IMG/VR virus record: IMGVR_UViG_3300005535_000018
Span: 39,500 to 103,499 of that record
Strand: one strand, 5' to 3'
Length of the DNA stretch: 64,000 nucleotides
From: a virus
Taxonomy: Duplodnaviria; Caudoviricetes
In this document: in pieces, positions 19,883-45,468 of the stretch
How the letters are laid out: every line of letters begins with the position of its first letter
Numbering within the stretch: the first letter of the stretch is position 1
Notes under the pieces: model-generated
What the model was told of the DNA's origin: nothing
The model's database searches: none
The model's input: only the letters and a program-made list of their open reading frames with translations
Program-made: the position numbers and the translations under genes

Positions 19883-20770
19883 GTGCCGAGACCCGACCGG
19901 CACCTGAGCGTGCGCGATGCTGCCGCGGCGCTGGGCGTGCCCGACTCCACTGTGCGGCTGTGGCTCGCCCGCGGCGACCTGCACGGCGGCGCCGACGACG
20001 CCGACCCTGGGCTGCGTCGCATCACCCCACCCACCCAATGGGTCGCCCAGTCCTCAGTGGACGCTGCGTTAGCGGCCCGGGCCGCCCGGGCCGGGGTACG
20101 CCTGGCCGTCACCGTCGCCGCCCTCAAGGGCGGCGTCGGCAAGTCGACCACGACGTGGGCGTTGGCGTCGCTGCTCGCCGACGAGGGCTGGCGGGTGCTG
20201 GTGATCGACGCCGACCCGAACTCGCAGACCTTGTACAGCCTGGCCGGGCGGTACCTCGAGGGGGGCGGGGAGCTGCCGTGGCGGGTGGTGCCCTGGGCGA
20301 CCCACGACCTGGGCCTGCTCGCCAACGCGCGCCGTCTCGCCGCCGACTACGACCACGTGCTGATCGACACCGGCCCCGACGGCGCCGACCTGACCCTGCT
20401 GCAGGCTGCCTGCCGGGTTGCGCCGCTGCTGGTGATGCCGTTCGCGCCCCGGGCGATCGAGCTGGAGCGGCTACCGGCCACAGTGGAGGCGGCCCGCCGC
20501 GGCAGCGTGCTAACCGAACAGCCGGTGTGGCCGGTGGTGCTGCTCACCAAGGTCGCGTTGCGCTCGCCCGCCGCCGAACGGACCCGGGCCGAGCTGGCCG
20601 CCGCCCCGCCCCCGATCAGCGGCATACCGGTGCTGGACAGCGAGGTCCGCGAGCTGGCCGTGTACACCCGCTACGCCGGACCCCTGACCCGCGCCGAGGC
20701 CGGCGACTACGTCGGGGTGCTCGATGAGCTGCGGGCCCTCACGGCCCAAATCGAAGACCAGGAGCTGTGA
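19883..20770 (+). CDS. parA: ParA-family ATPase with N-terminal HTH
   Basis: KGGVGKSTT; LVIDADPN; LIDTGP; N-terminal SVRDAAAALGVPDSTVRLW. Confidence 0.88.
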   Translation: MPRPDRHLSVRDAAAALGVPDSTVRLWLARGDLHGGADDADPGLRRITPPTQWVAQSSVDAALAARAARAGVRLAVTVAALKGGVGKSTTTWALASLLADEGWRVLVIDADPNSQTLYSLAGRYLEGGGELPWRVVPWATHDLGLLANARRLAADYDHVLIDTGPDGADLTLLQAACRVAPLLVMPFAPRAIELERLPATVEAARRGSVLTEQPVWPVVLLTKVALRSPAAERTRAELAAAPPPISGIPVLDSEVRELAVYTRYAGPLTRAEAGDYVGVLDELRALTAQIEDQEL

Positions 20771-26755: not shown

Positions 26756-27068
26756 GCGGGTGTGGCGGCGGCGTACGGCCGGCTGGCGTAAGCCGGCCGG
26801 CGTCGTCGACGTCACCCGGCCCGGCCAGTGGTGCAACCCGTACCGGGTCGGCCGGCCGTGGCGCGGCTACCGGGCCGCCGCCGACGCGGCTGAGGCGGTG
26901 TGGCTGTTCCGGACCCTGGTGGCCGAGAGCCCAACGTTCGTCGAGCTGGTGCGGGCCGAGCTGGCCGGGCGGGACCTGATGTGCTGGTGCCCGCTCGTCG
27001 ACAGCCGCGGCCGACCGATGCCCTGTCATGCCGATGTTCTTTTGGAGATCGCTAATGCGCCCCGTTGA
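26748..27068 (+). CDS. DUF4326-family protein
   Basis: GWRKP..V.VTRP..W.NP; LAGRDLMCWCP..CHADVL. Confidence 0.85.
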   Translation: MPERVWRRRTAGWRKPAGVVDVTRPGQWCNPYRVGRPWRGYRAAADAAEAVWLFRTLVAESPTFVELVRAELAGRDLMCWCPLVDSRGRPMPCHADVLLEIANAPR

Positions 27069-27080
27069 CTACGCGGCTCT

Positions 27081-27181
27081 GACCCCAGATCTTGGCGCGC
27101 ATGGCTGCCTACGCCGAGCTAGACCTAGGGCTGCCGGGGGAGCCGTGCCACGCGGACGTGTTGCTCGATCTCGCCAACCCC
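27081..27181 (+). pseudogene. Remnant: endonuclease-VII-like tail followed by a duplicate DUF4326 C-terminus
   Basis: PQILARMAAYAEL, then PCHADVLLDLANP in the same frame. Confidence 0.55.
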
Positions 27182-27186
27182 GCCCC

Positions 27187-27225
27187 TTGTGTCCCTAGGG
27201 ACACGGGTGTATCTTAGGGATACAC
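27187..27225 (+). promoter_or_regulatory. Repeated promoter/operator, copy 6
   Basis: TTGTGT-17-TATCTT; palindrome GTGTCCCTAGGGACAC. Confidence 0.8.
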
Positions 27226-27242
27226 AGGATGAGGGAGCCGAG

Positions 27243-27836
27243 ATGAACACGAGCACGATGACCCCCCGCGAGATCGACGAGATGCTGGCCGACCTCTACA
27301 TGGCCCGCCTCGCCAACGACCACGCCTACGAGATCGCGCTCAACGCCATCCACAGCGCCGTCGGCTCCCGCGAGTACGTCCGGGGCAGCTGGGCCCAGAA
27401 GGGCCACTACGTCAACCACATGACCGATGAGGCCGCAATCGGGGAGCAGCGCCGCCGCCTCGACGCGGGCGAGGTCGAGGCGTGGAACGTCGAGTACGCC
27501 GAGAGGCGGCTGGCCGCCCTCGACGCCTGCGACGCCGAGTACACCCGCATCATCGTCGCGAAGACGCCCCTCGACGACGAGTTCGCCCGTCGGCCCTGGT
27601 CGCGGTTCTTCCTCGTCACCTCGAGCGATGGGCACATCCACTCGTCGATGTCCTGCCAGACGTGCAGGTGGTCGACGACCTTCGGGTGGCTGCCCGAGCT
27701 GTCGGGCCAGACCGAGGCCGACGCCGTCGCGTTGCGCGGCCCGGCGCTGTGCACGGTCTGCTTCCCGTCGGCTCCGACCGAGTGGACCAGCGCCAAGCTC
27801 ACCAAGACGGGCCGGCTCAGCAAAGCGGCCCGCTGA
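27243..27836 (+). CDS. Conserved actinophage hypothetical protein
   Basis: WSRFFLV..GHIH..CxTC..WLPELSG..LCTVCFPSAP. Confidence 0.78.
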   Translation: MNTSTMTPREIDEMLADLYMARLANDHAYEIALNAIHSAVGSREYVRGSWAQKGHYVNHMTDEAAIGEQRRRLDAGEVEAWNVEYAERRLAALDACDAEYTRIIVAKTPLDDEFARRPWSRFFLVTSSDGHIHSSMSCQTCRWSTTFGWLPELSGQTEADAVALRGPALCTVCFPSAPTEWTSAKLTKTGRLSKAAR

Positions 27837-27843
27837 CCGCACG

Positions 27844-27883
27844 AAAGGGCCGCCGCCCCGGGTCACCCGGGCGGCGGCCCTTT
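27844..27883. terminator. Intrinsic terminator closing the cassette array
   Basis: AAAGGGCCGCCGCCC...GGGCGGCGGCCCTTT. Confidence 0.85.
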
Positions 27884-27994
27884 GCGTTGATCGGCTGCCC
27901 GGCCTGCGGCCGCGCGTCTACCATCTCGGGCAAAAGACGGACGAATCACCCCAAGACGGCGGGGGTGCCGCGCCGCGCTACCACGGGGGGCATC

Positions 27995-28837
27995 GTGACC
28001 ACACCGGCAACCGAGCGGCGCGTGGAGTACATGCCGCTCTCAGCCATCCACCGCGCCCCCCGCAACCCGAAACAGCACGACGCCACCGGCATCAGGGCCA
28101 GCCTCGCCCGCTTCGGCGTCGCCGACCTACCGGTGCTGGACGAGCGCACCGGCCAGCTCGTCTCCGGCCACGGCCGCCTCGACCAGTTCCACTACCTCGC
28201 CACCCTGCCGGCGGCCGCCCTCGAAGAGGTCGTGGGCCGGCCCGGCCTGCCGGGTGGGGTGCGCGTCGACGCCGACTCGGGGGAGTGGCTGGTGCCGGTC
28301 GTGCGGGGCTGGGCGTCGGCGACCGACGCCGAAGCCGAGGCGTACGTGATCGCCGCGAACAAGCTCACCGTCAACGGCGCCTGGGATGACACCGAGCTGG
28401 CCCGCATGTTGGCCGACCTCGTCGACGCCGACGGTGACCTGGCCGCCCTGACCGGCTTCGATTCGGGCGAGCTGGACGACCTGTTGATGCTGCTCGACCC
28501 GGGCCCGATCATCCACGACGCTGTGCCGGCCACCGGGGCCCGCTACGCCGAGACCGACGAGCAGGAGGCCGTGCGTGACGAACGCATCGCCGGCTACCAG
28601 CCCGCCGTCGACCGGGCCGGCGGCTTCTCGGAGGTGATCCTGGTCTACCCGCGCGAAGACCGGGAGGAGTTCGGCCGCCTCGTCGCCGACGCCCGCGAAG
28701 TGTTGGGCGTCGACCTGCGCGCCGCCGACATCGCCCTGCGGGCGATGCGGGTGCTGGCCGCGGTCCTCGACGCCCGCCACGACCCCAACCCCATCACCGG
28801 CGCTGGCCTCGCCCGCCACGCCGGCTGGGCGCAGTGA
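27995..28837 (+). CDS. ParB/Srx N-terminal domain protein
   Basis: PRNPKQH..IRASLARFG..VSGHGRL..AYVIAANKL. Confidence 0.85.
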   Translation: MTTPATERRVEYMPLSAIHRAPRNPKQHDATGIRASLARFGVADLPVLDERTGQLVSGHGRLDQFHYLATLPAAALEEVVGRPGLPGGVRVDADSGEWLVPVVRGWASATDAEAEAYVIAANKLTVNGAWDDTELARMLADLVDADGDLAALTGFDSGELDDLLMLLDPGPIIHDAVPATGARYAETDEQEAVRDERIAGYQPAVDRAGGFSEVILVYPREDREEFGRLVADAREVLGVDLRAADIALRAMRVLAAVLDARHDPNPITGAGLARHAGWAQ

Positions 28838-29745
28838 TGGACGGCGACGCCTTCGCCGACCTGGTGATGTTCGCCCGGCTCGAGGTTGCCGCCGCCGACA
28901 TCGAACCGTGGGCGGCGATCTTGGAGCACCTCCACCGCGGCGGCTACCTCGACGACGAAGAGGCCCTGTGGGCCGTCAAGCTGTACAACGCCACCGACGA
29001 CCTCGGCACGACGTGGCGGCTACGCGACCGGTGGCCCACCCCGGCCGCCTGGAGCTCCGACCTCGACCACACCTTTGCCCGGGGGCTGCCCCTGTCCCGC
29101 GAGAGGCGCAACCTGCGCGGCGGCCGCATCACCCAGCACCTCGACTCATACCTGGCGCACCTGCACGGCCAGACCCAGTCGACGTGGCTGTGGGAGGCAG
29201 TGCCGCCCGGCGCCACCCCCACCGAGGCGTTCGGCACCCTCATCCCGTACCTGCGCCGCGTGTGGGGCGTCGGCCGGCAGACCGCGTTCGAGTGGTGCGA
29301 GTTCGTCGCGAAGGTCGGCGGGTTGCCCGTCGAGGCGCCCGACGCCTACCTGTGGGAGTCCAGCGGCCCCCGCGAGTCGCTCGAGCGGCTCTACAACCGC
29401 GGCGCCCCGGCCCCGTCGCCGCAGTGGCTCAACACCGTCGCCGCCGACTGCCGCGCCGCCCTCGCCGCCGCCGGGGTGGCCCTGACGTGGTGGGACTTCG
29501 AGACCGTCATCTGCGACTTCAAGGTCATGTGCAAGGGCCGCTACTACCCGGGCCAGCACATCGCCATGATCCGCGAAGAGATCGAAGGGCTGCCCGACCC
29601 GCACCGCGGCCACCTGCGCCGCGCCCTGCAGGCCGTCGTCCCGGCCCCCTGGTGCGACGTGCCGCCCGGCCCAGACAAGGCCCTGGCCCGCGCCTACCGC
29701 GACACCGGAGCGATCACCACACCCCTGGAAGGGGCCACCGTATGA
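28834..29745 (+). CDS. Amino acid:DNA transferase-like (aGPT-Pplase, HhH-glycosylase fold)
   Basis: VWGVGRQTAF HhH; ETVICDFK..GRYYPG; gene context. Confidence 0.72.
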   Translation: MMDGDAFADLVMFARLEVAAADIEPWAAILEHLHRGGYLDDEEALWAVKLYNATDDLGTTWRLRDRWPTPAAWSSDLDHTFARGLPLSRERRNLRGGRITQHLDSYLAHLHGQTQSTWLWEAVPPGATPTEAFGTLIPYLRRVWGVGRQTAFEWCEFVAKVGGLPVEAPDAYLWESSGPRESLERLYNRGAPAPSPQWLNTVAADCRAALAAAGVALTWWDFETVICDFKVMCKGRYYPGQHIAMIREEIEGLPDPHRGHLRRALQAVVPAPWCDVPPGPDKALARAYRDTGAITTPLEGATV

Positions 29746-30848
29746 ACACCGCCACCACCGACCCGCGGGCCGCGGCCCGGTTCATGGGCACCTACTCGCG
29801 GCGCTTCGCCGCCGGAGCGTTCGCCACCCCGACCGCGGCCGAGATTGCCCGCCTGGTCGAGGCCGGCGACGGGTGGCACGAGTGGCCCGGCGTGGCGGCC
29901 GCGTCGCGGCATTTGACCCGCGACTCGACCCGCCGCGACTTCACCGGCCGGCCCTATCTGCTGCTGGGCGGGGCCCGCGTCATCACGCACCTCGCCGCCG
30001 ACCCGGACGCCACCCTGCCCGACCTCGACCGCTTCGACTGGGTCTACGCCTACGTCGAGGACACCAACATCACCGCGCAGCTGCGGGCGCAGGGCCGGGA
30101 GGTGCGGGCGGTGCGGATCTCCGCCGCCAGCGAGATCATCGCCTGCTGGGGGCGGCCCGGCACAGGCACCCCCACCGACAAGGTCGACGCGGCGACCCTG
30201 GTGCGTATCCCGCTGACCGTGTTGGCGCCGCTGCGGGCCCGCATGGCCGCCGAGGCCGCCGCGATCGACTCCTGGCACGACGACTTCCCGTTCTACTCCG
30301 ACGGGTCGTGGGCTGCGGTGTCGCTGCGCGGGTTCAACCCGGCCGACCCGACGTGGGGAATCAAGCCGGCCGAGATGTCGAAGAGCTGGTGGGCGGCGCA
30401 TCCGGAGGCCGAGCAGTACGACCGGTGCGACTGGACTGTGCTGGCGAAGCGGTGCCCGGCGATCGTCGACATGATCGAGTCGGTGGACTGGTGGCCCGGG
30501 CTGGAGCGGGTCCGGCTGCTGCGCATGGCTGGCCGCGACGGCAAGGGCGGCGCGTTGGCCCGCCACACCGACGTCACCGACCGGGCCGCCGGCACCGGCG
30601 ACGGGCAGATCGTCCGGTTCCACATTCCGCTCGTCACCGCCCCGAAGATCACGATGTCGGCGTGGAACCTCGACGGGCGCCGCACCGACCGGCACCTGCC
30701 GGCCTGGTCAATGTGGTACCTCGACGCCCGCAAACCCCACGCCGTCACCAACCGGGCCGGCATCGACCGCATCCACCTCGTCGTGGATGTGGTGGCCGAC
30801 GAACGCACCCGCGCGGCGATCGTGGCGGGCGAGGACGCGGCGGCGTGA
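29742..30848 (+). CDS. Asp/Asn beta-hydroxylase-like 2OG-Fe(II) oxygenase with an extra N-terminal domain
   Basis: RVRLLRM; HTD; RFHIPL; KPHAVTN; RIHLVVD. Confidence 0.82.
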   Translation: MNTATTDPRAAARFMGTYSRRFAAGAFATPTAAEIARLVEAGDGWHEWPGVAAASRHLTRDSTRRDFTGRPYLLLGGARVITHLAADPDATLPDLDRFDWVYAYVEDTNITAQLRAQGREVRAVRISAASEIIACWGRPGTGTPTDKVDAATLVRIPLTVLAPLRARMAAEAAAIDSWHDDFPFYSDGSWAAVSLRGFNPADPTWGIKPAEMSKSWWAAHPEAEQYDRCDWTVLAKRCPAIVDMIESVDWWPGLERVRLLRMAGRDGKGGALARHTDVTDRAAGTGDGQIVRFHIPLVTAPKITMSAWNLDGRRTDRHLPAWSMWYLDARKPHAVTNRAGIDRIHLVVDVVADERTRAAIVAGEDAAA

Positions 30849-30849
30849 C

Positions 30850-31410
30850 GTGGAGCTGCTGTACGTGGCCGGGCCGCCGTGCGCGGGCAAGTCGACCCTG
30901 ATGGCGGCGTTGACGGCCGGCTGCGAACGGGCCCCGGCCGACCTGCCCGTGCCGCACAGTCGGCTGATCGACCCGGCCGACGGGAGCGTGGTCGGGGCCG
31001 AGCTGGGCCGTGACCGGGCCGGGTTCCCCGGCACCGACGCCCTCGGCATGGCGGTGTCGCCGGTGGCGTGCCGGTGGGTGCAGGGCGGCGGGCCGGCGTT
31101 GCTGCTCGCCGAAGGGGACCGCCTCGCCCATATGGGGTTCCTGCGGGCCGCCGCGGCGGGCGGCTACGCCGTCACCCTCGCCCACCTCAACGCCCCGGCC
31201 GAGGTGCTCGACGAGCGGTGCGGGTGGCGCGGCTCGACCCAGAACGACGCCTGGCGACGCGGCCGCGCCACGAAGGCCGCCCGGCTCGCCACCGCGGCCG
31301 CCGCCGCCGGGCTGGCTGTGACCAGCCTCGACGCGGCCGACCCGGTCGACGAGCTGGTGACGCAACTCAGGACCGCCGTGCCGGCCCTGTCGGCCCTACC
31401 GGAGGCATAG
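30850..31410 (+). CDS. P-loop nucleotide kinase (base-modification type)
   Basis: GPPCAGKST; FPGTDAL; EGDRL; RGSTQN. Confidence 0.82.
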   Translation: MELLYVAGPPCAGKSTLMAALTAGCERAPADLPVPHSRLIDPADGSVVGAELGRDRAGFPGTDALGMAVSPVACRWVQGGGPALLLAEGDRLAHMGFLRAAAAGGYAVTLAHLNAPAEVLDERCGWRGSTQNDAWRRGRATKAARLATAAAAAGLAVTSLDAADPVDELVTQLRTAVPALSALPEA

Positions 31411-32319
31411 ATGACGACGGTCCACACAGAGGTGAGACTCCGCACGCGGGTGTCGGAGGACGCCATCCGGGAGCACCTCAGCGGGCGGGTGCTCGGCCCG
31501 GCCGACTACGACGTGCTGCTGACCGGGCCGACCCGGGTCCGTAAACCGGACGGGCGGCCGCTGTGCGTCTACCTTCCCGGCGCCCTGGCCGAACAGGTCG
31601 CCGAACCCGCCGTGTACGAGGTGCTGCACTCCCTGCGGGACCGGCTGACCAAGAACCGCGGCGCCGCGTCGGGCACGCGGCGCCTGCGCGGCGGCAACGT
31701 GCGCCGCTCCTACGCCCTCGAAACCGCGTCGGCCGTGATCGGGGCAGTCGACCCGATGGGGCAGATCCGCTACTGCCGGCTGACGGCCTGGACCGGCGAG
31801 AACCTGCCCCAGTGGCGCATCCTGCAGCCGCTGCTCGCCGAGGTCGCCGCCAACTTCGCCCAGCACGTACCGGACCGCTACGCCGCCCAGCTCGCCGAGG
31901 CGGCCCGCACCGACCCGGCGTGGGTCGTGCCCGGCACCCCGTTCAGCACCGTCACGGTCAACAACACCTACCCGACCGGAGTCCACAAGGACAAGGGCGA
32001 CCTGGACAAGGGGTTCTCCACGATCGGGGTGCTGCGCCGCGGCTCCTACATCGGCGGCCACCTCGTGTTCCCCGCCTGGCGGGTGGGGGTCGACCTGCAC
32101 GACGGCGATCTGATCCTGATGGACGCCCACGACTGGCACGGCAACACCGTGATCGTGTGCGAGTGCGGGCGGGAGGCCCGCGGCGCGTGCCCCGACTGCG
32201 GCGCCGAACGCATCAGCGTCGTGTCGTACTTCCGGACGAAGGTCGCCGACTGTGGCAGCCCGGACGAGGAGCTGACCCGCGGCGACGCCCGCCGGGCCGC
32301 CCTCGCCCCGGCCGACTAA
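31411..32319 (+). CDS. TET/JBP-family 2OG-Fe(II) dioxygenase
   Basis: CRLTAW; PFSTVTVN; HKDKGD; WHGN; RISVVSYFR. Confidence 0.87.
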   Translation: MTTVHTEVRLRTRVSEDAIREHLSGRVLGPADYDVLLTGPTRVRKPDGRPLCVYLPGALAEQVAEPAVYEVLHSLRDRLTKNRGAASGTRRLRGGNVRRSYALETASAVIGAVDPMGQIRYCRLTAWTGENLPQWRILQPLLAEVAANFAQHVPDRYAAQLAEAARTDPAWVVPGTPFSTVTVNNTYPTGVHKDKGDLDKGFSTIGVLRRGSYIGGHLVFPAWRVGVDLHDGDLILMDAHDWHGNTVIVCECGREARGACPDCGAERISVVSYFRTKVADCGSPDEELTRGDARRAALAPAD

Positions 32320-32330: not shown

Positions 32331-32924
32331 GTGCCTTCTGTGACGCTGCCGACGTTGCCGCTCGACCCGGGCCGTGACCCTTGGGACCGGCAACCCGACG
32401 AGACGACGCTGCGCTACGACCAGTTCCGGCTCTACCTCGACGCGGGGCGGGGCCGCACCCTGCGCAAGGTTGCCGAAACCCTTGCACGTCACCCGGCCTA
32501 CGTGCGGGCGGTCGCGGCCGCGTACCGGTGGGTGGAGCGGGCCGAAGCCCAAGACCGGCACCGCGACGACCTGCACGAGAAGGTGTGGCTGGAGGAGCGG
32601 CGCAAGGCCGCCGAACGGGACAGTGCCCTGCTCAACGCCGCCGTCGGGAAGGTCGCCGGCCGGCTCCAGACGCTGCTGCCCGAGGAGCTGGACCCGGCGG
32701 ACCTGGTGCGCATGTTGGACGTCGTCATGCGGCACCGGCGGGCCCTGTTCGGCGACCCGGGGCTGACGGTGGCGGTGACCGGCCCGGGCGGCGACCCCCT
32801 CGCGGTGCAGTTGGCCGAGCTGGCGGCGATGACGGCGGACCAACGCCGCTCCGCGATCGCGGACCTGACCGCGGCCGTGGCCCGCCGGTCACGGGCGTCG
32901 GCCGGTGGGGACGACGATGAATGA
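32331..32924 (+). CDS. Terminase small subunit (putative)
   Basis: PWDRQPDE..F..YLD.G..R.L..VA; WVERA; precedes TerL. Confidence 0.7.
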   Translation: MPSVTLPTLPLDPGRDPWDRQPDETTLRYDQFRLYLDAGRGRTLRKVAETLARHPAYVRAVAAAYRWVERAEAQDRHRDDLHEKVWLEERRKAAERDSALLNAAVGKVAGRLQTLLPEELDPADLVRMLDVVMRHRRALFGDPGLTVAVTGPGGDPLAVQLAELAAMTADQRRSAIADLTAAVARRSRASAGGDDDE

Positions 32925-34504
32925 CGGGCCCCGACCGGGCCGGCGAGCTGGCCACCGCCGATGACCTGACGGTCTATTCGACGCTGCTGGCTGCGCAGCG
33001 GTCCCTGGCGGGTGACCTGCTGGTCGACCCGGCGACGATGGCGCGGGGGCTGGACGGCGAGTACCGCATGCGCCCGCACCTGCGGGTGATCGGGGCGGCG
33101 ATGGCGGGGGTGCTGGCCGGTGCCTATGACCGGCTGCTCGTGATCACGCCCCCGCAGGTCGGCAAGTCCACCCTCGTCGGCGAGTGGGGCGTGATGTGGT
33201 GGCTCGCGAACCGGCCCACCGACGACGTTGTGATCGCCTCCTACGGGGCTGACCTGGCCGAGGCCCGGTCGAAGGCCGTCCGGGCGTTGATCATCGCCCA
33301 CGGCGGCGAGTACGGGCTGCGCCCGTTGCGCGGCTCCAACGCGGCCAAAGACTGGCGCCTGGAGTCCGGAGCGCACCTGCGGGCGATTGGTGTGGGCGGT
33401 GGGCTGTCCGGCTTCCCGGCGAACCTCCTGGTCGTCGACGACCCACACGCTGACCGGGCCGAAGCCGAGTCGCCCCGCATCAGGGGCGCCGTGCATGACT
33501 GGTGGTCGTCGACCGCGTCGACCCGGCTGCAACCCGACATGGGGGCGGTGATCTGTGTCCAGACCCGATGGCACCTCGACGACTTCGCCGGCCGGCGCCT
33601 CGAGGAGGAAGGCCGCATCGAAGACGGCGGCCGGTGGAAGGTGGTCCACCTGCCCGCCATCGCGGACCCCCGCTTCGGCGTCGACCCGCTCGGCCGCCAG
33701 CCGGGGGAGCCCCTGACCCACCCGAAGATCCGCACCAGCGACACGGCGGCGCTGGTGGCGTGGTGGCAGGGCAAGAAGGCCGGCTCGCTCGTGCGGGACT
33801 GGCATTCGCTGTACCAGGGCGACCCGCAACCCGCCGCTGGGGCGTTGGTGACGGCCGAGGTGCTGCGCAACATCCGCGACGCCAAGACCGAGGTCGAGCC
33901 GCAACGCATCGCCGTCGCGGTTGACCCGTCGGGCGGGGGCCGCGACGTCGCCGGCATCATCGGCGGCTTCCTCGGCGACGACGGCCGGCTGTGGATCACC
34001 GACGACGTCTCCGCGGTCATGTCGTCGGAGGAGTGGTCGCTGGCCGCGGTGCGCCTGGCCTACGACATCGGCGCCTCAGTGATCGTCGTCGAGACCAACT
34101 ACGGCGGCGACATGGCCACGCTGGTGCTGCGCACTGCCTGGGCGACGATGGCCCGCGAAGGCGAGATCGACGCCGAGGAACTGTGCCCGCTGATCAGGGT
34201 CGTGCGGGCCCGGCAAGGCAAGCTGCTGCGGGCTGAGCCGATCGCCCAGCAGATGTTCATGGACCGGGTGCGGCTGCGGGGCCTGTTCGTGGACCTTGAG
34301 CGGGAGTGGATGACGTGGCAGCCCACCGACCCGCTGTCGCCCGGGCGCATCGACGCCTCGGTGTACCTCGCCTACGCGTTGTTGCCGATCCCGTCGATTG
34401 GGGCGCAGTTCGCCACCCCGTCCGGGTCGATGCCGACCAGTGCCGTGTCGCCGCTGGGCGGCCAGTCGGCGGAGGCGACGACCACGGTGTCGCCCCTGGG
34501 CTGA
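32921..34504 (+). CDS. Terminase large subunit
   Basis: PPQVGKST; LVVDDP; QTRWHLDD; VAVDPS; RIDA. Confidence 0.95.
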   Translation: MTGPDRAGELATADDLTVYSTLLAAQRSLAGDLLVDPATMARGLDGEYRMRPHLRVIGAAMAGVLAGAYDRLLVITPPQVGKSTLVGEWGVMWWLANRPTDDVVIASYGADLAEARSKAVRALIIAHGGEYGLRPLRGSNAAKDWRLESGAHLRAIGVGGGLSGFPANLLVVDDPHADRAEAESPRIRGAVHDWWSSTASTRLQPDMGAVICVQTRWHLDDFAGRRLEEEGRIEDGGRWKVVHLPAIADPRFGVDPLGRQPGEPLTHPKIRTSDTAALVAWWQGKKAGSLVRDWHSLYQGDPQPAAGALVTAEVLRNIRDAKTEVEPQRIAVAVDPSGGGRDVAGIIGGFLGDDGRLWITDDVSAVMSSEEWSLAAVRLAYDIGASVIVVETNYGGDMATLVLRTAWATMAREGEIDAEELCPLIRVVRARQGKLLRAEPIAQQMFMDRVRLRGLFVDLEREWMTWQPTDPLSPGRIDASVYLAYALLPIPSIGAQFATPSGSMPTSAVSPLGGQSAEATTTVSPLG

Positions 34505-34575: not shown

Positions 34576-34920
34576 ATGTCGGTATGGCCGTGGGTGGTGT
34601 ATGCCCTGGCAGTCGCCCGCATCACCGGCCTCATCGCCGCCGACGAGATCAGCCGGCCGGCCCGTGAATGGATCGTCGAGCACCTTCCGCTCTGGCGCTT
34701 CTCCGTTGCGTTCGAATACCTGCTGACCTGCGTCTGGTGTGTGTCCTTGTGGGTGGCGGCTGGCACCGTGGCCCTCGCGTGGCATTGGGGTGGGCGGGCC
34801 TGGCTGGTGGGTCCGGCCCTCGCCCTCGCGCTCAGCCAGGTCGCCGGCATGGTGTCGCCGCTGGGCCGGCCGGCCCCTCAACCCGCACCCGACAGTGACG
34901 ACGCCGCGGTGACGCCATGA
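34576..34920 (+). CDS. DUF1360-like membrane protein
   Basis: ARITGLI..D.I; LLTCVWCVSLW; TATAGT 7 nt upstream (leaderless-type). Confidence 0.75.
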   Translation: MSVWPWVVYALAVARITGLIAADEISRPAREWIVEHLPLWRFSVAFEYLLTCVWCVSLWVAAGTVALAWHWGGRAWLVGPALALALSQVAGMVSPLGRPAPQPAPDSDDAAVTP

Positions 34921-36893
34921 CGGTGGCGACCCTGCCCGCCCACCGTCTGCCCGACCTCAACCAGCGCTGCACCGGCACCGCGACCACGACCGGCGCCCAG
35001 TGCCGCCGGTGGACCGTGCCCGGCACCGACCGGTGCGGCACCCACGCCTCCGCGACGTTGCCGATGCAGGCCGTCACCGCCTCGGTCGCCACGGTCCAGA
35101 TGGAGGGGGTGGGGTGGCGTACCTGGCGGCCCGGCTCCCGCACCTGGCAGACCGAGGCGTGGCGCCTCTACGACATCACCCCCCAGCTGCGGTTCGTCTG
35201 CAACTGGGTCGGCAACTCCGTCAGCCGGTGCCGGCTGTACGTGGCCGAGCTGGACGAGTCCGGCGAGATCACCGGCGAGGTCGACGACCCCGAGATCGGC
35301 GCCCTGGCGCAGGGCCCCCTCGGTAAGGGCCCCGCCAAAGACGAGGCGCTGCGACTGCTGGCGATCAACCTGTACGTGCCGGGTGACGGCTTCATCGTCG
35401 CCGAGGCCGACGCCGGCCCCGACGGCGACGACCTGTGGTTCGTGACGAGCGGCCGCCAGATTCGCCTGTCCGGCGACCGGATCATCATTCGCCGCTCGCT
35501 GCTGCACGGCGGCGGCGACATGATCTTTAGGCCCGGGGTGGACCTGCTGCTGCAGGTGTGGACGCCTCACCCGGCCGAACCGGACGAGCCGGACTCGCCG
35601 ACCCGCTCGGCCATCCCTGACCTGCGAGAGATCGAGGCCCTGCGCAAGCGCGAGTTCGCCGAGTTGGACTCGCGGTTGGCCGGCGCGGGCCTGCTCGCCC
35701 TGCCGCAGGGCATCGACTTCCCTCGGGCGCCCGACGACCCGCCCGGCATCGACGGCTTCCAACGGCTGCTGATGCGGGCGATGGCGACCAGCCTGCAGGA
35801 CCGGGCCTCCGCCGAAGCCCTCGTGCCGATCATGGTGACCGTCCCGCCCGACGTCGTCGACAAGATCAGGCTGGTCACGTTCTGGAGCGACCTGTCCGAG
35901 CAGTTGCTGCCGTTGCGTGAGGCGGCCGTGCGGTCCCTCGCCCAGGGCCTGGACATACCACCAGAAATCCTCCTAGGTCAGGCAGATAGCAATCACTGGA
36001 CTGCCTGGCAGGTGAGCGACGATGCGATCACCACGCAGATCAAACCGATCTTGGCCCGCATCGCCGACGCCCTCACCACCGGCTACCTGCGCCCGGCGCT
36101 CGAGTCGATGGGCCTCGACCCGGACCTGTACTCGTACGACTTCGACACCGGCCCCCTGTCCGCCCGCCCGAACCGCACCACCGACGCCCTCGCCTACCAC
36201 TCCGAGATCCTGTTGTCCGACGAGGCGGCCGTGCTCGCGGGCGCGTGGACGCCGGAGCAGATGCCCACGCAGCGGGAGCGGCTACGCCGCATCGCGGAGC
36301 GGGCCCTGGTGGCTGACCCGACCCTGCTGACCGACCCGACGATCAGGGAACTGGTGGGCCTACCGCCGCCCCCGCCGTCGGTGGTCGCGCCGGCCCCACC
36401 GCCCGGCGCCCCCAGCCCGCCGCCGCCCGCCCCGGGTCAGGAACCCCGCGCTATCCCGACCCAGCCCACCGAGGCTCCCAAACCGGCCCCCCCGCCGGCC
36501 CAGCCCGCCCCCGCGCCGGCCCCGACGGCAGCGTTGCTGCTGCCCGTGGCGGGGCTGGCGGTGCGGCGGGCCCTTGCCCTGGCCGGGGTGCGGCTGGTCA
36601 CCCACTACCAACGTGACCAGTGGCCCGACACGCCCCGCCACCAGCTCCACACCCGACGCGGCCCGGTCAGCGTCGCCGACGCCGAACGGGTGCTGCGCGG
36701 CGCCTGGACCGAGCTGGCCCCCGCCGCCGACGACCTCGGCCTTGACCCGGTCAGTGTTGAGACCCTCCTGCACGGCTTCTGCGTCGAGCTCCTCACCCGC
36801 GGCATGGCGTACGAGGCGACCCTGCTGCGTGACCTCGTCGACGCCGCCTGCACCGGCCGGCGCCTCGACGCGGCACTGGGGGTCGCCGCATGA
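34917..36893 (+). CDS. Portal protein
   Basis: Position after TerL; WQTEAW.LYD..PQL; DSP.RS; LDIPPEILLG..NHW.AW. Confidence 0.85.
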   Translation: MTVATLPAHRLPDLNQRCTGTATTTGAQCRRWTVPGTDRCGTHASATLPMQAVTASVATVQMEGVGWRTWRPGSRTWQTEAWRLYDITPQLRFVCNWVGNSVSRCRLYVAELDESGEITGEVDDPEIGALAQGPLGKGPAKDEALRLLAINLYVPGDGFIVAEADAGPDGDDLWFVTSGRQIRLSGDRIIIRRSLLHGGGDMIFRPGVDLLLQVWTPHPAEPDEPDSPTRSAIPDLREIEALRKREFAELDSRLAGAGLLALPQGIDFPRAPDDPPGIDGFQRLLMRAMATSLQDRASAEALVPIMVTVPPDVVDKIRLVTFWSDLSEQLLPLREAAVRSLAQGLDIPPEILLGQADSNHWTAWQVSDDAITTQIKPILARIADALTTGYLRPALESMGLDPDLYSYDFDTGPLSARPNRTTDALAYHSEILLSDEAAVLAGAWTPEQMPTQRERLRRIAERALVADPTLLTDPTIRELVGLPPPPPSVVAPAPPPGAPSPPPPAPGQEPRAIPTQPTEAPKPAPPPAQPAPAPAPTAALLLPVAGLAVRRALALAGVRLVTHYQRDQWPDTPRHQLHTRRGPVSVADAERVLRGAWTELAPAADDLGLDPVSVETLLHGFCVELLTRGMAYEATLLRDLVDAACTGRRLDAALGVAA

Positions 36894-38139: not shown

Positions 38140-40287
38140 ATGGGTACGCGCTGGCGCGGGATGCTCGCGCCGATCAACCGGCCGACCGGCGACGGGCGGC
38201 GTATGGCCAAGGGTGCGTTCCGGTCCCGGCCGCTGCCCCTGGCCCTGAAGTGGCAGCGGCAAGACGAGATGGGCCACGATTCCTCGGTTGTGGTTGGCCT
38301 CGTCGACCGGCTCGACATCGACGAGGTGTCGGGCGAGGTGTGGGCCGAAGGGGAGCTGTTCGACGACCAGCCCCAGTTGCCGCGCCTCACCCAGGACGTC
38401 GCCGAGGCGATGCTGCTGACCTCCAAGAAGATCATCGGCCCGTCGGTGGATGCCGGCGCCGCCGAAATGATCTTTGTGCGGGAGGGCTCCGACGTCCCGT
38501 TGACTGACGCTGACTGGGAAGAGCTGCTGCGCCAGGAGATGGACTCAGGCGAACCGGCACCCATCGAGATGCTGTTCACCGACTACGAGATCGCCGCCGC
38601 CACACTGGTCGCGATTCCGGCGTTCGTCGAAGCCCGGCCATTCCAGCTGCTGCCCGCCGCCCCGGCCGAGCAACCCGCCCCCGACGCGGCGCCCCAGCCC
38701 GCACCGGAGCCAGCGCCGGCCGCGGCCGGCCGGCTTGCGGTGCTGACCGCGGCCGCGGCCGGGCCGGTCACGTTGCCGGCTGACGTGTTCGCCGGCCCCG
38801 CCGACGCCCCGCCCTACCAGCTGCTGACGGTTGAGGCGCCCCGCGACGGGGAGCCGTTCCGGCGGGTGGCCGGCTACGCCGCCGCGTTCGGCGTGTGCCA
38901 CGTCGGGTTCAAGGGCGTCTGTGTCCAGGCCCCCAACGCCTCGGTCGACTACGCCCTGTACCACCGCTACCCGCTCGACACGGCCGAAGGTCTGGTGGCC
39001 ACCGGCCGCATCACCACCGGCCTCGGCCGGGTCGGGTCGGGCTGCTCGCACCTCAAGTGCCGCCGCAACGACGACCACGCCTGCCGCGACTATTCGCTGA
39101 CCGACACGATCAGCCACCACGACCAGATGCGCACCGTTGCGCACGTGCGGGCGACCGAATACGCCGGCGTGGGCGTCTGGGTCCAGGGCATCATCGCCGA
39201 CGACGCCACCGACGACGACCTGGCGGTGCTGGCCCGGCAGCGGGTGTCGGCCGACTGGCGCGAGTACGCGGGCCACCTCGAGATGGTCGAGGTGTTGGCG
39301 TTGGCGAAGGAGGAGCCCGGCTTCCCGATTCCCGCGACGACCATCCGCGACGGCCGCCAGTACAGCCTGATCGCGGCGGGTGCGGTGCCGCCTCTCGACC
39401 CGGTGACCGTGACACCGCCACCCGAGCCGGAGTTGGCGGGCGTGGCGGCGACGATCGCGTCGCTGGTCGTGGCGGAGCTCCGCCGGCCGCTGCTGGCCGC
39501 GGCCGCCGCCGCCGACTCGAAGCCCGCGCCTGACCAGCAGCCCCCGCCGGACTGCCAGCCCGGCGAGCCGGGCTGCGAAGACATGCCGATGCCGGTGCAG
39601 CACACCGGCGCGATGGTGGCGTTGGTGCCGTCAGAAGCCGACGCGGCCCGCCTCGCCGTCGACGGCGGCGAAGCCCCCGAAGAGCTGCACCTCACCCTCG
39701 TCTACCTGGGTGAGGCGGCCGACATCAACGCCGCCAGCCGGCAGGCCATCATCGACTCCCTGACCTCGCTGTGCGCGGAGTGGCACACGGCTGCCGAAGG
39801 TGAGCTGTCGATCGTCGGGGATGCGTTCAGCGTCAACGCTTTCAACCCGGCGGCCGAAGACAAGGAACCCTGCATCGTGTTGGGCGTCTCGGGCGAGCAG
39901 GTCGCCGCCGCCCACGAGCAGGTGACCGACGTCGTCAAGGCCGTCTTCGGGTTCCCGCCCCAACACCAGCCGTACGTGCCGCACGTGACCCTCGCCTACA
40001 CCGAGGACATGTCGCTGATCGCCGACCTGGCCGACCGCACCGGCGACGTCACGTTCGACCGGGTCCGGATCGCGTTCGCGGGCGCCTACCACGACATTCC
40101 GTTGGGCGGCCCCGCCGACCCGGCCACCGACGGCGAGGCCCCGCCAGCCGGCGGGCAGGAGCCGGTGACCGCGGCGGCGTTGCTGGCCGAGCTGGGCGCT
40201 GCCCTCGACTGGCCCGACGCCGACGAGCGGGCCCGGGCCGCGGCCGAGCTGGCCCGCGAGATCGAGCGGGAGGCCGTGCATGTGTAG
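38140..40287 (+). CDS. Head maturation protease-like protein with C-terminal 2H phosphoesterase
   Basis: TGDGR..LPL..GH..VVG; HLTL and HVTL motifs. Confidence 0.78.
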   Translation: MGTRWRGMLAPINRPTGDGRRMAKGAFRSRPLPLALKWQRQDEMGHDSSVVVGLVDRLDIDEVSGEVWAEGELFDDQPQLPRLTQDVAEAMLLTSKKIIGPSVDAGAAEMIFVREGSDVPLTDADWEELLRQEMDSGEPAPIEMLFTDYEIAAATLVAIPAFVEARPFQLLPAAPAEQPAPDAAPQPAPEPAPAAAGRLAVLTAAAAGPVTLPADVFAGPADAPPYQLLTVEAPRDGEPFRRVAGYAAAFGVCHVGFKGVCVQAPNASVDYALYHRYPLDTAEGLVATGRITTGLGRVGSGCSHLKCRRNDDHACRDYSLTDTISHHDQMRTVAHVRATEYAGVGVWVQGIIADDATDDDLAVLARQRVSADWREYAGHLEMVEVLALAKEEPGFPIPATTIRDGRQYSLIAAGAVPPLDPVTVTPPPEPELAGVAATIASLVVAELRRPLLAAAAAADSKPAPDQQPPPDCQPGEPGCEDMPMPVQHTGAMVALVPSEADAARLAVDGGEAPEELHLTLVYLGEAADINAASRQAIIDSLTSLCAEWHTAAEGELSIVGDAFSVNAFNPAAEDKEPCIVLGVSGEQVAAAHEQVTDVVKAVFGFPPQHQPYVPHVTLAYTEDMSLIADLADRTGDVTFDRVRIAFAGAYHDIPLGGPADPATDGEAPPAGGQEPVTAAALLAELGAALDWPDADERARAAAELAREIEREAVHV

Positions 40288-40716: not shown

Positions 40717-41378
40717 TGCCGGTCGACTGCGTTGTTCTCTTGCCCATGCTGGGCCGGGCCCATCGGGTCCGGCCCTTGCTGGAGTCTCTGCACGCCTCGA
40801 CCGACCAGGCCCGGGCCCTGTTCGTCGTCCACCAGGGCGACACCGACGTCCTGGCGGCCATCAAGGCCCAAGGCGCCGACCACATGTTCGTGACGCGGGT
40901 GCCGGTCGGCGACTACGCCCGGAAGATCAACCTCGGCTACCGGGGCAGCACCGAGCCGTTGATCTTCCTCGGGGCGTCAGATCTCCACTTCCACCCCGGC
41001 TGGCTCGACGCCTGCCGGGCCGTGCTCACCCCCGGCGTGGGTGTGGTCGGCACCAACGACCTCGGCTCGCCGCGGGTGATGGCCGGCGACCACTCCACCC
41101 ACTCGCTGGTGACCCGCGACTACGCCGACCGGCACGGCACGATCGACGGCCCGGGCCAGATCTACTGCGAGGCGTACCCGCACGAATACGTCGACGACGA
41201 GCTGGTCGGCACCGCCAAACACCGCGGCGCGTGGGCCTTCGCCGCCGACGCCCACGTCGAGCACCTCCACCCCAACTGGCACCCCGAGGTGCCGATGGAC
41301 GAGACGTACCGGGGCCAGCAGCGGCGCATGCTCATCGGCCGGCGCATCTTCAACCGCAGGCGGCACCGGTGGATGTGA
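40716..41378 (+). CDS. Glycosyltransferase (GT-A/GT2-like)
   Basis: VLLPMLGR; KINLG; FLGASDL; YVDDEL; VEHLH. Confidence 0.8.
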   Translation: MPVDCVVLLPMLGRAHRVRPLLESLHASTDQARALFVVHQGDTDVLAAIKAQGADHMFVTRVPVGDYARKINLGYRGSTEPLIFLGASDLHFHPGWLDACRAVLTPGVGVVGTNDLGSPRVMAGDHSTHSLVTRDYADRHGTIDGPGQIYCEAYPHEYVDDELVGTAKHRGAWAFAADAHVEHLHPNWHPEVPMDETYRGQQRRMLIGRRIFNRRRHRWM

Positions 41379-41983
41379 CGGTGTGCGTGGCCACATTTGG
41401 CGGCCCGGAATGGGAACACCTCGCCCGCAGCCGGGCGTTGCCGTCGGCCCGGGCGTTGGGGGTGCCGGCGGTCCACGTCCACGCCGGCACCCTCCACGAG
41501 GCCCGCAACCTCGCCGTCGCCGAGGTCGACACCGAGTGGGTCATCCACCTCGACGCCGACGACGAGCTGGAGCCCGGCTACGTCACCGCGATGGCCGCCG
41601 GGTCGGCTGACGTGCGGGCCCCCGCAGTGCGGTACATCCGCGGCTACGGCGACCGGTCGGCCGCCGCTGCCATGCCCCGCGTCGCGGGCCACGACCACGA
41701 CTGCACCGGCGGGTGCCTGCCGTACGGCAACTGGCTCGTCGTCGGGGCGGCGGTGCGCACCGAGCTGGTGCGGGCGGTGGGCGGCTGGCAGGACTGGGAC
41801 TGGAGCGAGGACTGGGATCTGTGGCTGCGGATCTTCCTGGCCGGCGGGTCGTTTGAAGCTGTGCCGGCCGCCGTTTACCGGGCCCATGTGCGGCGCGGCT
41901 CCCGCAACCGGGGCCGCTCCCACGCCGCCCGTCTCGCCACCCACCGCGCGATCGCCGAAGCGAACGGGGTACCGGTGCCGTGA
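41375..41983 (+). CDS. Glycosyltransferase (GT2)
   Basis: ARNLA; HLDADD; VGGW..SEDWDLWLR. Confidence 0.88.
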   Translation: MTVCVATFGGPEWEHLARSRALPSARALGVPAVHVHAGTLHEARNLAVAEVDTEWVIHLDADDELEPGYVTAMAAGSADVRAPAVRYIRGYGDRSAAAAMPRVAGHDHDCTGGCLPYGNWLVVGAAVRTELVRAVGGWQDWDWSEDWDLWLRIFLAGGSFEAVPAAVYRAHVRRGSRNRGRSHAARLATHRAIAEANGVPVP

Positions 41984-42183
41984 CAACCGACTGCCTGTGG
42001 TGTGACCGGGAATGTCCCCGCTGCGGATTCCCCATCCCGGTCGGCTGGGAACACGCCGAACAGCAGCCCCCACTCGACGGGGCGATCGTGGCGATCTGTC
42101 ACCTGCGGCGGGCGGTGCGGCCACTCATCGACACCCTGGCCGGCTACCTGAACCACTACAAGCATGTGAAGGCCGGCCGGTGA
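41980..42183 (+). CDS. Small Cys-rich hypothetical protein
   Basis: Coupled. Confidence 0.5.
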   Translation: MTTDCLWCDRECPRCGFPIPVGWEHAEQQPPLDGAIVAICHLRRAVRPLIDTLAGYLNHYKHVKAGR

Positions 42184-42412
42184 ACACCTGGCAGCCGAGC
42201 CGCCCCGGTGACACCCCCGGGGCGGCGCCCCACGGTGACGACGGGCAGCCGCTGCCCCGGCCAGAGTGTTCGCTCGGTGGCGGGTTCCGGCTGACCACCG
42301 TCGCCCTCGGCCGTAAGCGGGTCCACCACCTGCGCAACGAATGGCCCCGGCCCACCAGCCGTCGTCGCCGGCCTCGCCGGCCGCCCCGGCTGCGCCGCTG
42401 GGACGGACACGC

Positions 42413-44505: not shown

Positions 44506-44557
44506 CAGCTACGACATCACGATCAGCGTCTCCAGCCCCCAAACGGGTGATGGTGAT

Positions 44558-45121: not shown

Positions 45122-45468
45122 CCATCCACACCGTGCGTCTCGTCGGCCAGGTGCTCGACGTCACCACCACCGCGATCATGGTCGGGTTCGTGGCCTACAT
45201 CGCGTGGCTGGTGTGGCGGTACCCGGTCGGGTTGCCGCACTGGCCGCCGCTGCTGCTGCTGTGGGCTTCGTTGCTGATCGCCGTGATGGACTTCGGCCGG
45301 GCCGGGTTCGGCGCCGGCCAGGTCCACTACGTGACCGGGGCGGCGTGGGTGGGGTGCGCCGCGGCGACGTGGGCGGCGCGGCGGATAACCCAGCGCCGGC
45401 ACCGCGAGCAGATGCTCCGCCTGGCGGCCGCCGAACCGCACGAGCAACGCCAGCGGCGCCTGCGATGA
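45118..45468 (+). CDS. Small membrane protein
   Basis: AAGGAGG RBS; 3 hydrophobic segments. Confidence 0.7.
   Translation: MTIHTVRLVGQVLDVTTTAIMVGFVAYIAWLVWRYPVGLPHWPPLLLLWASLLIAVMDFGRAGFGAGQVHYVTGAAWVGCAAATWAARRITQRRHREQMLRLAAAEPHEQRQRRLR

Follow-up and report, generated by a model that had tools for sequence, protein, structure and literature searches.

The locus described here raises the question of which base is made by a set of DNA-modification genes lying directly 5' of the packaging genes of a phage element, and what its two-domain oxygenase gene contributes. The analysed stretch, hereafter the window, covers 64,000 nt (positions 39,500 to 103,499) of the IMG/VR record IMGVR_UViG_3300005535_000018. 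A five-gene cassette occupies 27995-32319 (+) of the window, exactly from its first start codon to its fifth stop codon, immediately 5' of TerS and TerL. The element is a Streptomyces-type phage-plasmid; a megablast search of window positions 1-25000 against plasmids returned no match. The original computational prediction of such systems is reportedly that of Iyer et al. 2013. Contigs carrying TET_JBP, kinase and amino-acid:DNA transferase (AADT) genes were noted by Lee 2021 (PMC8989533), O'Toole 2026 (PNAS) reported phage T-dioxygenases that depend on ParB and are linked to kinases, AADTs and terminases (PMC13229309), and the annotation 'five-gene thymidine hypermodification system' is already used in actinophages (PMC11955845). 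This kind of system is therefore known, having been noted in 2021 and shown experimentally in 2025-26, and the part new to such pathways is the two-domain protein, g4. The TET, ParB, kinase and AADT scheme is established, and it is the tailoring step that decides which base results.

Organization and conservation of the cassette

Genes were called from a GC3 frame plot with inspection of start codons, which gave six contiguous genes on the + strand. The features of the locus are as follows.

27843..27883, + strand: perfect GC-rich hairpin, read directly from the sequence, 3' of the stop codon of the upstream gene (27243-27836)
27995-28837, + strand: g2, ParB-like protein, 280 aa (PHROG 620/723/498)
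28834-29745, + strand: g3, AADT of the clade-2 aGPT-Pplase type, 303 aa (PF18724 ADDT)
29742-30848, + strand: g4, GNAT-like domain and 2OG oxygenase, 368 aa (PF05118 Asp_Arg_Hydrox and structure model)
30850-31410, + strand: g5, P-loop kinase of the 5-hmU DNA kinase family, 186 aa (PF18751 Ploopntkinase3)
31411-32319, + strand: g6, TET/JBP-family 5-methylpyrimidine dioxygenase, 302 aa (PF12851 Tet_JBP)
32331-32924, + strand: TerS, terminase small subunit (PHROG 6299, E 9.7e-21)
32921-34504, + strand: TerL, terminase large subunit (PHROG 38, E 2.3e-74)
34917-36893: portal gene, downstream of TerL

A first-pass annotation had named ParB-like, AADT, AspH-like oxygenase, kinase and TET/JBP genes at this locus, and Pfam cut-offs or PHROGs confirm each of them; NCBIfam searches on g2-g6 gave nothing useful. 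The tight coupling into TerS/TerL that it described is borne out by the spacing, with 4-nt overlaps at g2/g3, g3/g4 and TerS/TerL, 1 nt between g4 and g5, no gap between g5 and g6, and 11 nt from g6 to TerS. The upstream hairpin has an RNA fold of -44 kcal/mol (z -4.6), and none of 200 shuffles is equally stable; it is terminator-like and sets the upstream gene apart from the cassette. A search for a sigma-70-like promoter 5' of the cassette found none. The strong hairpin ahead of the cassette and its translational coupling to TerS/TerL make it likely that expression is limited to the lytic phase, when DNA is packaged. The stronger proposal, that modification occurs at packaging and spares the plasmid form, draws on this operon layout and the upstream hairpin, and since the cassette lies away from the terminase in several relatives, we treat it as a suggestion. 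A six-frame HMM search of the whole 103,499-bp record, in which control genomes matched, found neither PF00145 (C5-MTase) nor PF00303 (ThyA-type hydroxymethylase), which extends to the full record an absence first noted for the window. Thymine is thus the sole 5-methylpyrimidine supplied by the element itself.

The cassette is widely conserved around g4, which has more than 300 homologues. Among IMG/VR loci, a kinase lies next to the g4 homologue in 37 of 38, an AADT does so in 34 of the 35 with enough flank, and a TET/JBP gene is present in 30 of 31. The AADT-g4-kinase order is kept, together with ParB and TET, in all nine contexts inspected (9/9). The arrangement is not a product of chance.

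The ParB-like, dioxygenase, kinase and transferase genes

The g6 protein, the only Tet_JBP member in the record, scores 60.2 bits against PF12851 (cut-off 34.9). Its H192-x-D194, H243 and R267, which form the iron triad and the 2OG-binding Arg, are invariant in alignments with seven relatives each, as is C281. It is predicted to act on thymine. By context g6 resembles the ParB-dependent T-dioxygenases, with a ParB gene in the same operon, ParB kept with the cassette in relatives, and no PF00145; only 6% of ParB-dependent T-dioxygenases lie near a C5-MT (PMC13229309). The tail that follows C281 has 21 residues, compared with 50-90 in the other TET subtype, and because a C-terminal extension past the last conserved Cys occurs only in ParB-dependent enzymes (PMC13229309), the ParB dependence of g6 is uncertain. 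As judged from its published description rather than from direct sequence comparison, the 5mYOX176/ParB176 type of O'Toole resembles this cassette in having TET/JBP and ParB-like genes in one operon with no neighbouring C5-MTase, in the co-located P-loop kinase, AADT and terminase, and in a conserved Cys near the C-terminus (C281 in g6, C280 in 5mYOX176). The present cassette differs in that its TET gene lies four genes from ParB, after the kinase, that g6 combines a CxC...CxxC insert (residues ~250-263) with the 21-residue tail, and that it has an extra GNAT-like/2OG-oxygenase gene, which goes unmentioned in the main text of PMC13229309.

The g2 protein matches the ParB-like PHROG 620/723 at an E value of about 2.7e-25, and a Pfam search returned nothing at E<=0.01. 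It aligns both to gene 1, also ParB-like, of LilMcDreamy, Wooper and Tonitrus and to ParBs encoded in metagenomic cassettes, and a homologue in L017 backs its start codon. With PADLOC, the sole match was to the ParB domain of fusions between ParB and a methyltransferase. The ParB of the ParB-dependent subclass consists of a nucleotide-binding domain and a C-terminal domain, without a DNA-binding domain (PMC13229309), and the subclass is further defined by thymine oxidation that requires this ParB on double-stranded DNA. The g2 protein is likely an activator or partner of the T-dioxygenase. The related plasmid pSITFR-21c also has a ParB-domain gene directly 5' of its TerS/TerL homologues, and a TET/JBP search found no match anywhere in its record. 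The idea that g2 is a mere terminase-associated ParB of that sort was rejected because the two ParBs have no detectable similarity.

The kinase g5 scores 117 bits against PF18751 (cut-off 27) and has a Walker A motif, GPPCAGKST, at residues 8-16. The M6 gp54 kinase and gp51 AADT are biochemically characterised (PMC8989533); pairwise BLAST of g5 with M6 gp54 shows no significant similarity, with an E value of 0.067 over the P-loop only, and the link between them runs through the Pfam family PF18751 alone. The transferase g3 scores 45 bits against PF18724, above the cut-off of 26.2, and belongs to that family. Its E223-T-x-x-C227 motif aligns with ETVLC of M6 gp51, and E223 and C227 are invariant across 11 relatives. 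We take C227 as the catalytic Cys because it is the only invariant Cys in the g3 alignment; the main text of PMC8989533 gives no residue numbers for its AADT mutants. The EWCEF motif (C153) was rejected as the active site, as C153 is variable and C227 is conserved. M6 gp51 transfers glycine (PMC8989533), but with only 19% identity between the two, g3 does not reveal which amino acid it uses.

The two domains of g4

The AspH-like label given to g4 at first pass holds for its oxygenase part, while a separate GNAT-like N-terminal domain of ~145 residues had been overlooked. The match to PF05118 is a marginal pass (26.3 bits, cut-off 22.6) and covers residues 231-351 only. In the AF2 model (pLDDT 93), residues ~145-355 adopt the double-stranded beta-helix of an Fe(II)/2OG oxygenase, in its AspH/proline-hydroxylase form, and the HxD...H...R site is intact, with H275, D277, H333 and R343 invariant in 40 homologues. 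The best structural matches are 1e5r (Z 16.5), 4p7x (Z 16.1; Foldseek E 1.4e-10) and AspH (Z 15.8), which leaves proline hydroxylases and AspH tied, and phmmer against the PDB gives a single match, 4p7w (E 0.031). The nearest solved structures use free proline or protein Asp/Asn and none uses nucleic acids; the strict synteny of g4 with DNA-modifying enzymes argues against EGF-domain Asp/Asn in protein as its substrate. A functional analogy is offered by ALKBH8, a 2OG oxygenase that hydroxylates the C5 side chain of a tRNA uridine (mcm5U; PMC4051686). It likewise is an Fe(II)/2OG enzyme for a uridine C5 side chain in a nucleic acid polymer, but it is eukaryotic, acts on RNA and belongs to the AlkB subfamily, with no specific relationship to g4. 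In the literature we found no description of an Fe(II)/2OG oxygenase of the g4 type in thymidine hypermodification pathways, and g4 may produce a base nobody has identified so far.

The N-terminal domain (residues 1-145) is modelled with a pLDDT of 86. The best 50 matches of a VIA search all belong to the GNAT superfamily, mostly acetyltransferases (Z 7.4-9.8, 110-138 residues aligned), and Foldseek gives weak matches, with GNAT proteins making up most of the top rows (prob up to 0.97, E at least 0.018). Residues 1-150 match no Pfam family at E <= 5, hence no GNAT model; inspection by eye found no acetyl-CoA loop (Q/RxxGxG/A) and no Gly-rich loop ahead of helix 108-116; a search for standalone sequence relatives of the domain found none. 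The ESM Atlas shows no features for the domain and was uninformative on its structure, since GNATs and methyltransferases appear side by side among the matches (TM <= 0.5) and the model is poor. With its likeness confined to the fold, the domain is therefore GNAT-like in fold only and not a GNAT member, and since it lacks the usual loop it may be non-catalytic. It is conserved, with many invariant charged residues.

Among cultured phages in the collection, Mycobacterium phage LilMcDreamy (MN284893) alone has a g4 homologue. Ahead of its terminase, gp1-gp5 represent the same five families, with 46% (AADT) and 44% (g4) identity to the present cassette, and its genes 2-4 are annotated 'hypothetical'. 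Its order is ParB-TET-AADT-g4-kinase, whereas it is ParB-AADT-g4-kinase-TET here; its TET belongs to the other subtype and is 24% identical to g6, and its genome is linear, 71.5 kb long and of lytic type, unlike the phage-plasmid. Rhodococcus phage Tonitrus and Gordonia DR-cluster phages such as Wooper and CaiB also carry ParB-like, TET-like, aGPT-Pplase2 and 5-hmU DNA kinase genes, placed at the left genome end ahead of the terminase (PMC11955845). No g4 homologue was found in these cassettes, and the product of their fifth gene (~290 aa) is unrelated and shows a weak Rossmann-type match at its N-terminus. In PaMx11, an FAD oxidase (gp47) and then a GNAT acetyltransferase (gp48) come right after the AADT (PMC8989533), and together with the Rossmann-type fifth gene this indicates that a slot for oxidative tailoring recurs behind the AADT. 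The M6, ViI and PaMx11 systems share with this cassette the PF18751 kinase family, the AADT family with its essential Glu/Cys motif, and the succession of 5hmU, phosphate, amino acid and tailoring, the last being oxidase plus GNAT in PaMx11. They differ in making 5hmdU before replication through a dUMP hydroxymethylase, whereas TET/JBP would act on the polymer here, and in tailoring with PLP, radical-SAM or FAD enzymes instead of a 2OG oxygenase.

Proposed pathway and competing readings

What we observed directly is which genes are present, their catalytic residues, the folds and the conserved gene order, whereas the chemistry of each step, the amino acid used, the timing and what g4 does are inferred. 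The cassette is probably a late-operon, post-replicative thymidine hypermodification set of the ParB-associated T-dioxygenase kind, with steps assigned by homology and g4 tailoring the adduct. The dioxygenase g6, probably aided by g2, would hydroxylate T in DNA to 5-hydroxymethyluracil, and g5 would phosphorylate the hydroxymethyl group. Cys227 of g3 would attack C6, the phosphate would leave, and an amino acid would add to the exocyclic methylene. This order, from T through 5hmU and 5-phospho-hmU to an amino-acid adduct, had already been proposed; it fits the characterised homologous families (PMC8989533, PMC13229309), and the catalytic residues are present. Finally, g4 would tailor the amino acid on the DNA: the Fe(II)/2OG domain would oxidise a side-chain carbon, and the GNAT-like domain would bind the substrate or acylate an exposed amine. 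The base case would be a stable hydroxylation; with glycine, the same chemistry would trim the adduct back to aminomethyl-U. Virion DNA would thereby be protected from host nucleases. The first-pass annotation had gone further, to a hydroxylated adduct and an unreported base. We regard both as candidates, because the best structures are free-proline hydroxylases and AspH, the GNAT-like domain suggests other outcomes, and a product like that of PaMx11 is possible.

Such a product would arise if the AADT added glycine through its alpha-amine and g4 hydroxylated C-alpha, the resulting carbinolamine giving 5-aminomethyl-dU and glyoxylate; acylation of the amine by the GNAT-like domain would then yield 5-acetylaminomethyl-dU or something closely similar. 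In that case the enzyme alone would be new, the base being already or nearly reported. The parallel with gp47 and gp48, which directly follow the PaMx11 AADT (PMC8989533), is suggestive, as g4, encoded directly after the AADT, is a single chain in which an oxidase domain is joined to a GNAT-like one, and g3 shares its active-site motif with the glycine-transferring M6 gp51. However, that sharing comes with just 19% identity, the GNAT likeness stays at fold level (Z <= 9.8; Foldseek E >= 0.018), neither a sequence match nor an evident acetyl-CoA loop backs it, and hydroxylation by the nearest oxygenases is at beta or gamma carbons and not at the carbon adjoining nitrogen. We consider this outcome fairly unlikely.

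It is also conceivable that g4 acts before transfer, hydroxylating a free amino acid (e.g., proline, aspartate or asparagine) that the AADT then attaches. The top structures are indeed free L-proline 3- and cis-4-hydroxylases (1e5r and 4p7x), as is consistent with 4p7w being the sole phmmer match in the PDB, but the tie with AspH means that the fold does not point to free amino acids in particular. In addition, a small free substrate would not need the conserved N-terminal domain with its invariant charged residues, and the characterised tailoring enzymes of these pathways all act on the DNA polymer (PMC8989533), which makes action before transfer improbable. At the first step of the pathway, the TET/JBP enzyme might use 5-methylcytosine from a host methyltransferase, so that the cassette would modify cytosine and not thymine. 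Some phage TET/JBP enzymes are 5mC dioxygenases (PMC8256090), and characterised T-dioxygenases oxidise 5mC as well in vitro (PMC13229309). Against this stand the absence of a C5-MTase from the whole record, the demonstration that ParB-associated enzymes without a neighbouring C5-MT are T-dioxygenases (PMC13229309), and the fact that the partner 5-hmU kinase and AADT families are known only on 5hmU (PMC8989533). A cytosine pathway thus appears very improbable.

On the preferred reading, in which g4 tailors the adduct on DNA, the GNAT-like/2OG-oxygenase fusion could be a new enzyme class acting on amino-acid-decorated T inside DNA, and actinophages, including a cultivable mycobacteriophage, could contain an undescribed hypermodified thymidine, confined here to virion-destined DNA; we advance this only tentatively, at somewhat below even confidence. 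The tailoring enzymes characterised so far are PLP, radical-SAM, FAD and acetyltransferase enzymes only, so a 2OG oxygenase in the tailoring slot, if true, would extend the reactions known on polymer DNA and probably the set of bases as well. Thymidine hypermodifications make DNA resistant to restriction enzymes and to other nucleases, and are a source of DNA-labelling enzymes. The g4 protein is conserved in hundreds of actinophage sequences. LilMcDreamy, with the same cassette, grows on M. smegmatis mc2 155, which makes the question directly testable. A phage-plasmid with an unmodified resident replicon and modified virion DNA, if that holds, would offer a clean natural setting in which to study when post-replicative modification takes place.

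A glycosyltransferase/methyltransferase cluster at 40.7-46.3 kb was considered as a base-J-like branch of the DNA pathway and is not supported, since one of its glycosyltransferases has no homologue in three complete cassette-bearing genomes. A 7-deazaguanine modification may be present in this element as well, by way of its DpdA.

Gene content and predicted active sites of the cassette

Third-position GC singled out a single + strand frame for each gene, and we compared these frames with Pfam and PHROGs. All five genes that the first-pass annotation had named as a base-hypermodification cassette were found at window positions 27995-32319; the cassette is real and had been described accurately. 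The reported lack of a C5-methyltransferase or thymidylate-synthase-family enzyme in the window was also confirmed, and it extends to the whole record.

Features of the cassette region (window coordinates)
27843-27883, +, perfect GC-rich hairpin at the end of the gene preceding g2 (-44 kcal/mol, z -4.6)
27995-28837, +, g2, ParB-like (PHROGs)
28834-29745, +, g3, amino-acid:DNA transferase (AADT; PF18724, 45 bits)
29742-30848, +, g4, AspH-type (PF05118, 26.3 bits, limited to the C-terminal third)
30850-31410, +, g5, kinase (PF18751, 117 bits)
31411-32319, +, g6, TET/JBP (PF12851, 60 bits)
32331-32924, +, TerS, directly after the cassette
32921-34504, +, TerL, after TerS

The junctions from g2 to TerL are 4-nt stop/start overlaps or spacings of 0-11 nt, and because of this packing and the upstream hairpin the cassette and packaging genes look like the beginning of their own transcription unit. 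A search upstream of the cassette yielded no sigma-70-type promoter, which is a weak test for an actinomycete late promoter. The gene preceding the cassette (27243-27836, +), which the hairpin separates from g2, belongs to a family of unknown function (phrog_2433) and carries CxxC...CxxC motifs.

Alignments show that H192-x-D194, H243, R267 and C281 of g6 are invariant in both cassette-linked TET/JBP subtypes. In g3, C227 is the sole invariant cysteine, four residues past the invariant E223, and the resulting ETxxC motif aligns with gp51 of phage M6, a glycine:DNA transferase in which the conserved Cys and the neighbouring Glu are essential (PMC8989533). A canonical Walker A motif is present in g5; its similarity to the M6 5-hmU DNA kinase, gp54, is not significant in pairwise comparison, so the kinase assignment rests on the Pfam family.

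Structure and distribution of the two-domain protein g4

The AlphaFold model of g4, built from 40 homologues, has a pLDDT of 93, and H275-x-D277, H333 and R343 are invariant across these homologues. Residues ~145-355 form a double-stranded beta-helix whose best structural match is L-proline 3-hydroxylase (Z 16.5), effectively tied with L-proline cis-4-hydroxylase (Z 16.1; Foldseek E 1.4e-10), human AspH (Z 15.8) and a nucleoside-antibiotic hydroxylase (Z 15.0). Residues 1-145 were modelled separately (pLDDT 86). All of the 50 best VIA-align matches of this N-terminal domain lie in the GNAT superfamily, mostly acetyltransferases (Z 7.4-9.8), and the top Foldseek rows are also mostly GNATs, at weak scores (E >= 0.018). 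Because a Pfam GNAT match, standalone relatives in sequence search and, on inspection by eye, an acetyl-CoA loop are all missing, we call the modelled domain GNAT-like in fold and not a GNAT. It is rich in charged residues that are invariant in the homologue alignment, a pattern suggestive of some functional site.

Full-length g4 homologues number more than 300, nearly all metagenomic, together with Kribbella prophages; Mycobacterium phage LilMcDreamy is the sole cultured phage with one in the collection searched. Every inspected context has the order AADT-g4-kinase, with a ParB-like gene and TET/JBP close by. With cassette HMMs derived from our alignments we scanned 38 IMG/VR loci that have a g4 homologue. 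The kinase adjoins the homologue in 37 of the 38 and the AADT in 34 of the 35 loci having enough flank, and TET was found in 30 of 31. The sole locus that breaks the pattern holds a distant homologue (33% identity). Two layouts occur: ParB-AADT-g4-kinase-TET in the element under study and its closest relatives, and ParB-TET-AADT-g4-kinase in LilMcDreamy and most other loci. Their TET subtypes are only ~24% identical. The terminase directly follows the cassette in many relatives, not all.

The exceptional homologue (L056:7806-9095, in the 111-kb record IMGVR_UViG_3300036799_000043) is alone among the 38 in having no AADT, kinase, TET or ParB nearby, and it could reveal the role of the fusion outside the cassette.

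Published systems and the possible role of g4

The kind of system is already known, as three sources show. Lee et al. established a chemistry of 5hmdU formation, 5-hmU DNA kinase, AADT and then tailoring, and noted contigs with TET_JBP in place of dUMP hydroxymethylase (PMC8989533). Experiments by O'Toole et al. demonstrated that T in DNA is oxidised by phage TET/JBP enzymes and that one subclass requires a co-encoded ParB; the same study reported that the genes of phage T-dioxygenases keep company with those of P-loop kinases, AADTs and terminases, only 6% of the enzymes being near a C5-MT (PMC13229309). In actinophages, the term five-gene thymidine hypermodification system was already applied in the announcement of Rhodococcus phage Tonitrus (PMC11955845). 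The reading in the first-pass annotation largely matches these systems, and its claim of novelty was therefore too strong.

Gordonia DR-cluster phages and Tonitrus likewise carry ParB-TET-AADT-kinase, whereas their fifth gene differs from g4 and has a weak Rossmann-type match. Lineages may differ in which oxidoreductase occupies the slot after AADT and kinase. The proteins concerned, gp5 of Gordonia phage Wooper (L010:3054-3926) and Tonitrus gp8 (L011:3761-4642), are annotated 'hypothetical', and the match is to an N-terminal NAD/FAD-binding Rossmann fold (E ~0.01).

What is new is an uncharacterised two-domain oxygenase that is strictly cassette-linked and widespread. Our literature search, which covered the main text of O'Toole et al., found no description of a 2-oxoglutarate oxygenase or GNAT-like/2-oxoglutarate oxygenase fusion as a tailoring enzyme.

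In the proposed pathway, g6, helped by g2, would convert T to 5hmU, g5 would phosphorylate it to 5-phospho-hmU, g3 would swap the phosphate for an amino acid, and g4 would tailor the adduct oxidatively on the polymer. For this last step we slightly favour, at less than even odds, the stable hydroxylation of the adduct that was first proposed, for which ALKBH8 is a tRNA precedent as described in PMC4051686. Only a little less likely is a route like that of phage PaMx11, in which oxidation would trim the adduct to aminomethyl-U and the GNAT-like domain would then acylate it; hydroxylation of the free amino acid ahead of its transfer is improbable, and some other activity of g4 takes up the remaining probability. 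In this role g4 probably determines a base that has not been identified previously, and LilMcDreamy, an available mycobacteriophage, makes the question directly testable.

The element and its other genes

The window spans bases 39500-103499 of an IMG/VR virus record, which is 72% G+C and 96% complete by CheckV. The record holds a complete set of head and packaging genes (TerS, TerL, portal, MuF-like protein, major capsid, head-tail adaptor) and plasmid-type genes (ParA, two FtsK/SpoIIIE, two tyrosine recombinases, DnaB), and its terminase region shares 68% DNA identity with pSITFR-21c, a circular 103.5-kb Streptomyces plasmid bearing phage genes. Putative Streptomyces-type phage-plasmid is therefore a reasonable label, and the backbone may be capable of conjugative transfer as well. 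For a phage-plasmid, late, packaging-phase expression of the cassette is plausible from the operon layout; a mechanistic link of modification to packaging and an unmodified plasmid form are both conjecture.

Other genes of the element (window coordinates unless stated)
4248-5423 and 5746-7875, both -, FtsK/SpoIIIE-like, Streptomyces TraB-type
15981-17132, +, tyrosine recombinase
19952-20770, +, ParA ATPase
38140-40287, +, MuF-like minor head protein; residues ~488-656 match PHROGs labelled 'RNA ligase'
41438-41983, +, glycosyltransferase (PF13632)
42578-43201, +, galactosyl transferase (PHROG)
43203-43886, +, Glyco_transf_7C
43879-44505, +, class-I SAM methyltransferase
record 7287-9971, tape-measure gene
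record 26855-28132 (L005:6855-8132), DpdA fused to DUF6884 (PF23859, 157 bits), located 11-12 kb before the window begins

The DpdA fusion would give the element a second enzyme for DNA modification, a 7-deazaguanine transglycosylase that would depend on host preQ0, since QueC and GTP cyclohydrolase I are absent from the record. A cluster of GT-A glycosyltransferase genes and a methyltransferase gene (40740-46274, +) lies between the MuF-like and major capsid genes. Because one of its glycosyltransferases has no homologue in three complete cassette-bearing phage genomes, the cluster probably serves virion glycosylation and not the DNA pathway. In the MuF-like protein, the C-terminal part that matches 'RNA ligase' may act as a fused cargo or effector domain.

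The 103,499-bp record has no called end repeats. Its first 10 bases equal its last 10 (103490-103499; window 63991-64000), GCCGTGGGGG, and the tape-measure and head genes lie at opposite ends; the record may represent a circle opened at an arbitrary point. TerL and the portal gene are separated by a small hydrophobic ORF (34576-34920, +), and a DUF1360 membrane protein occupies the matching position in pSITFR-21c and comparison locus L017.
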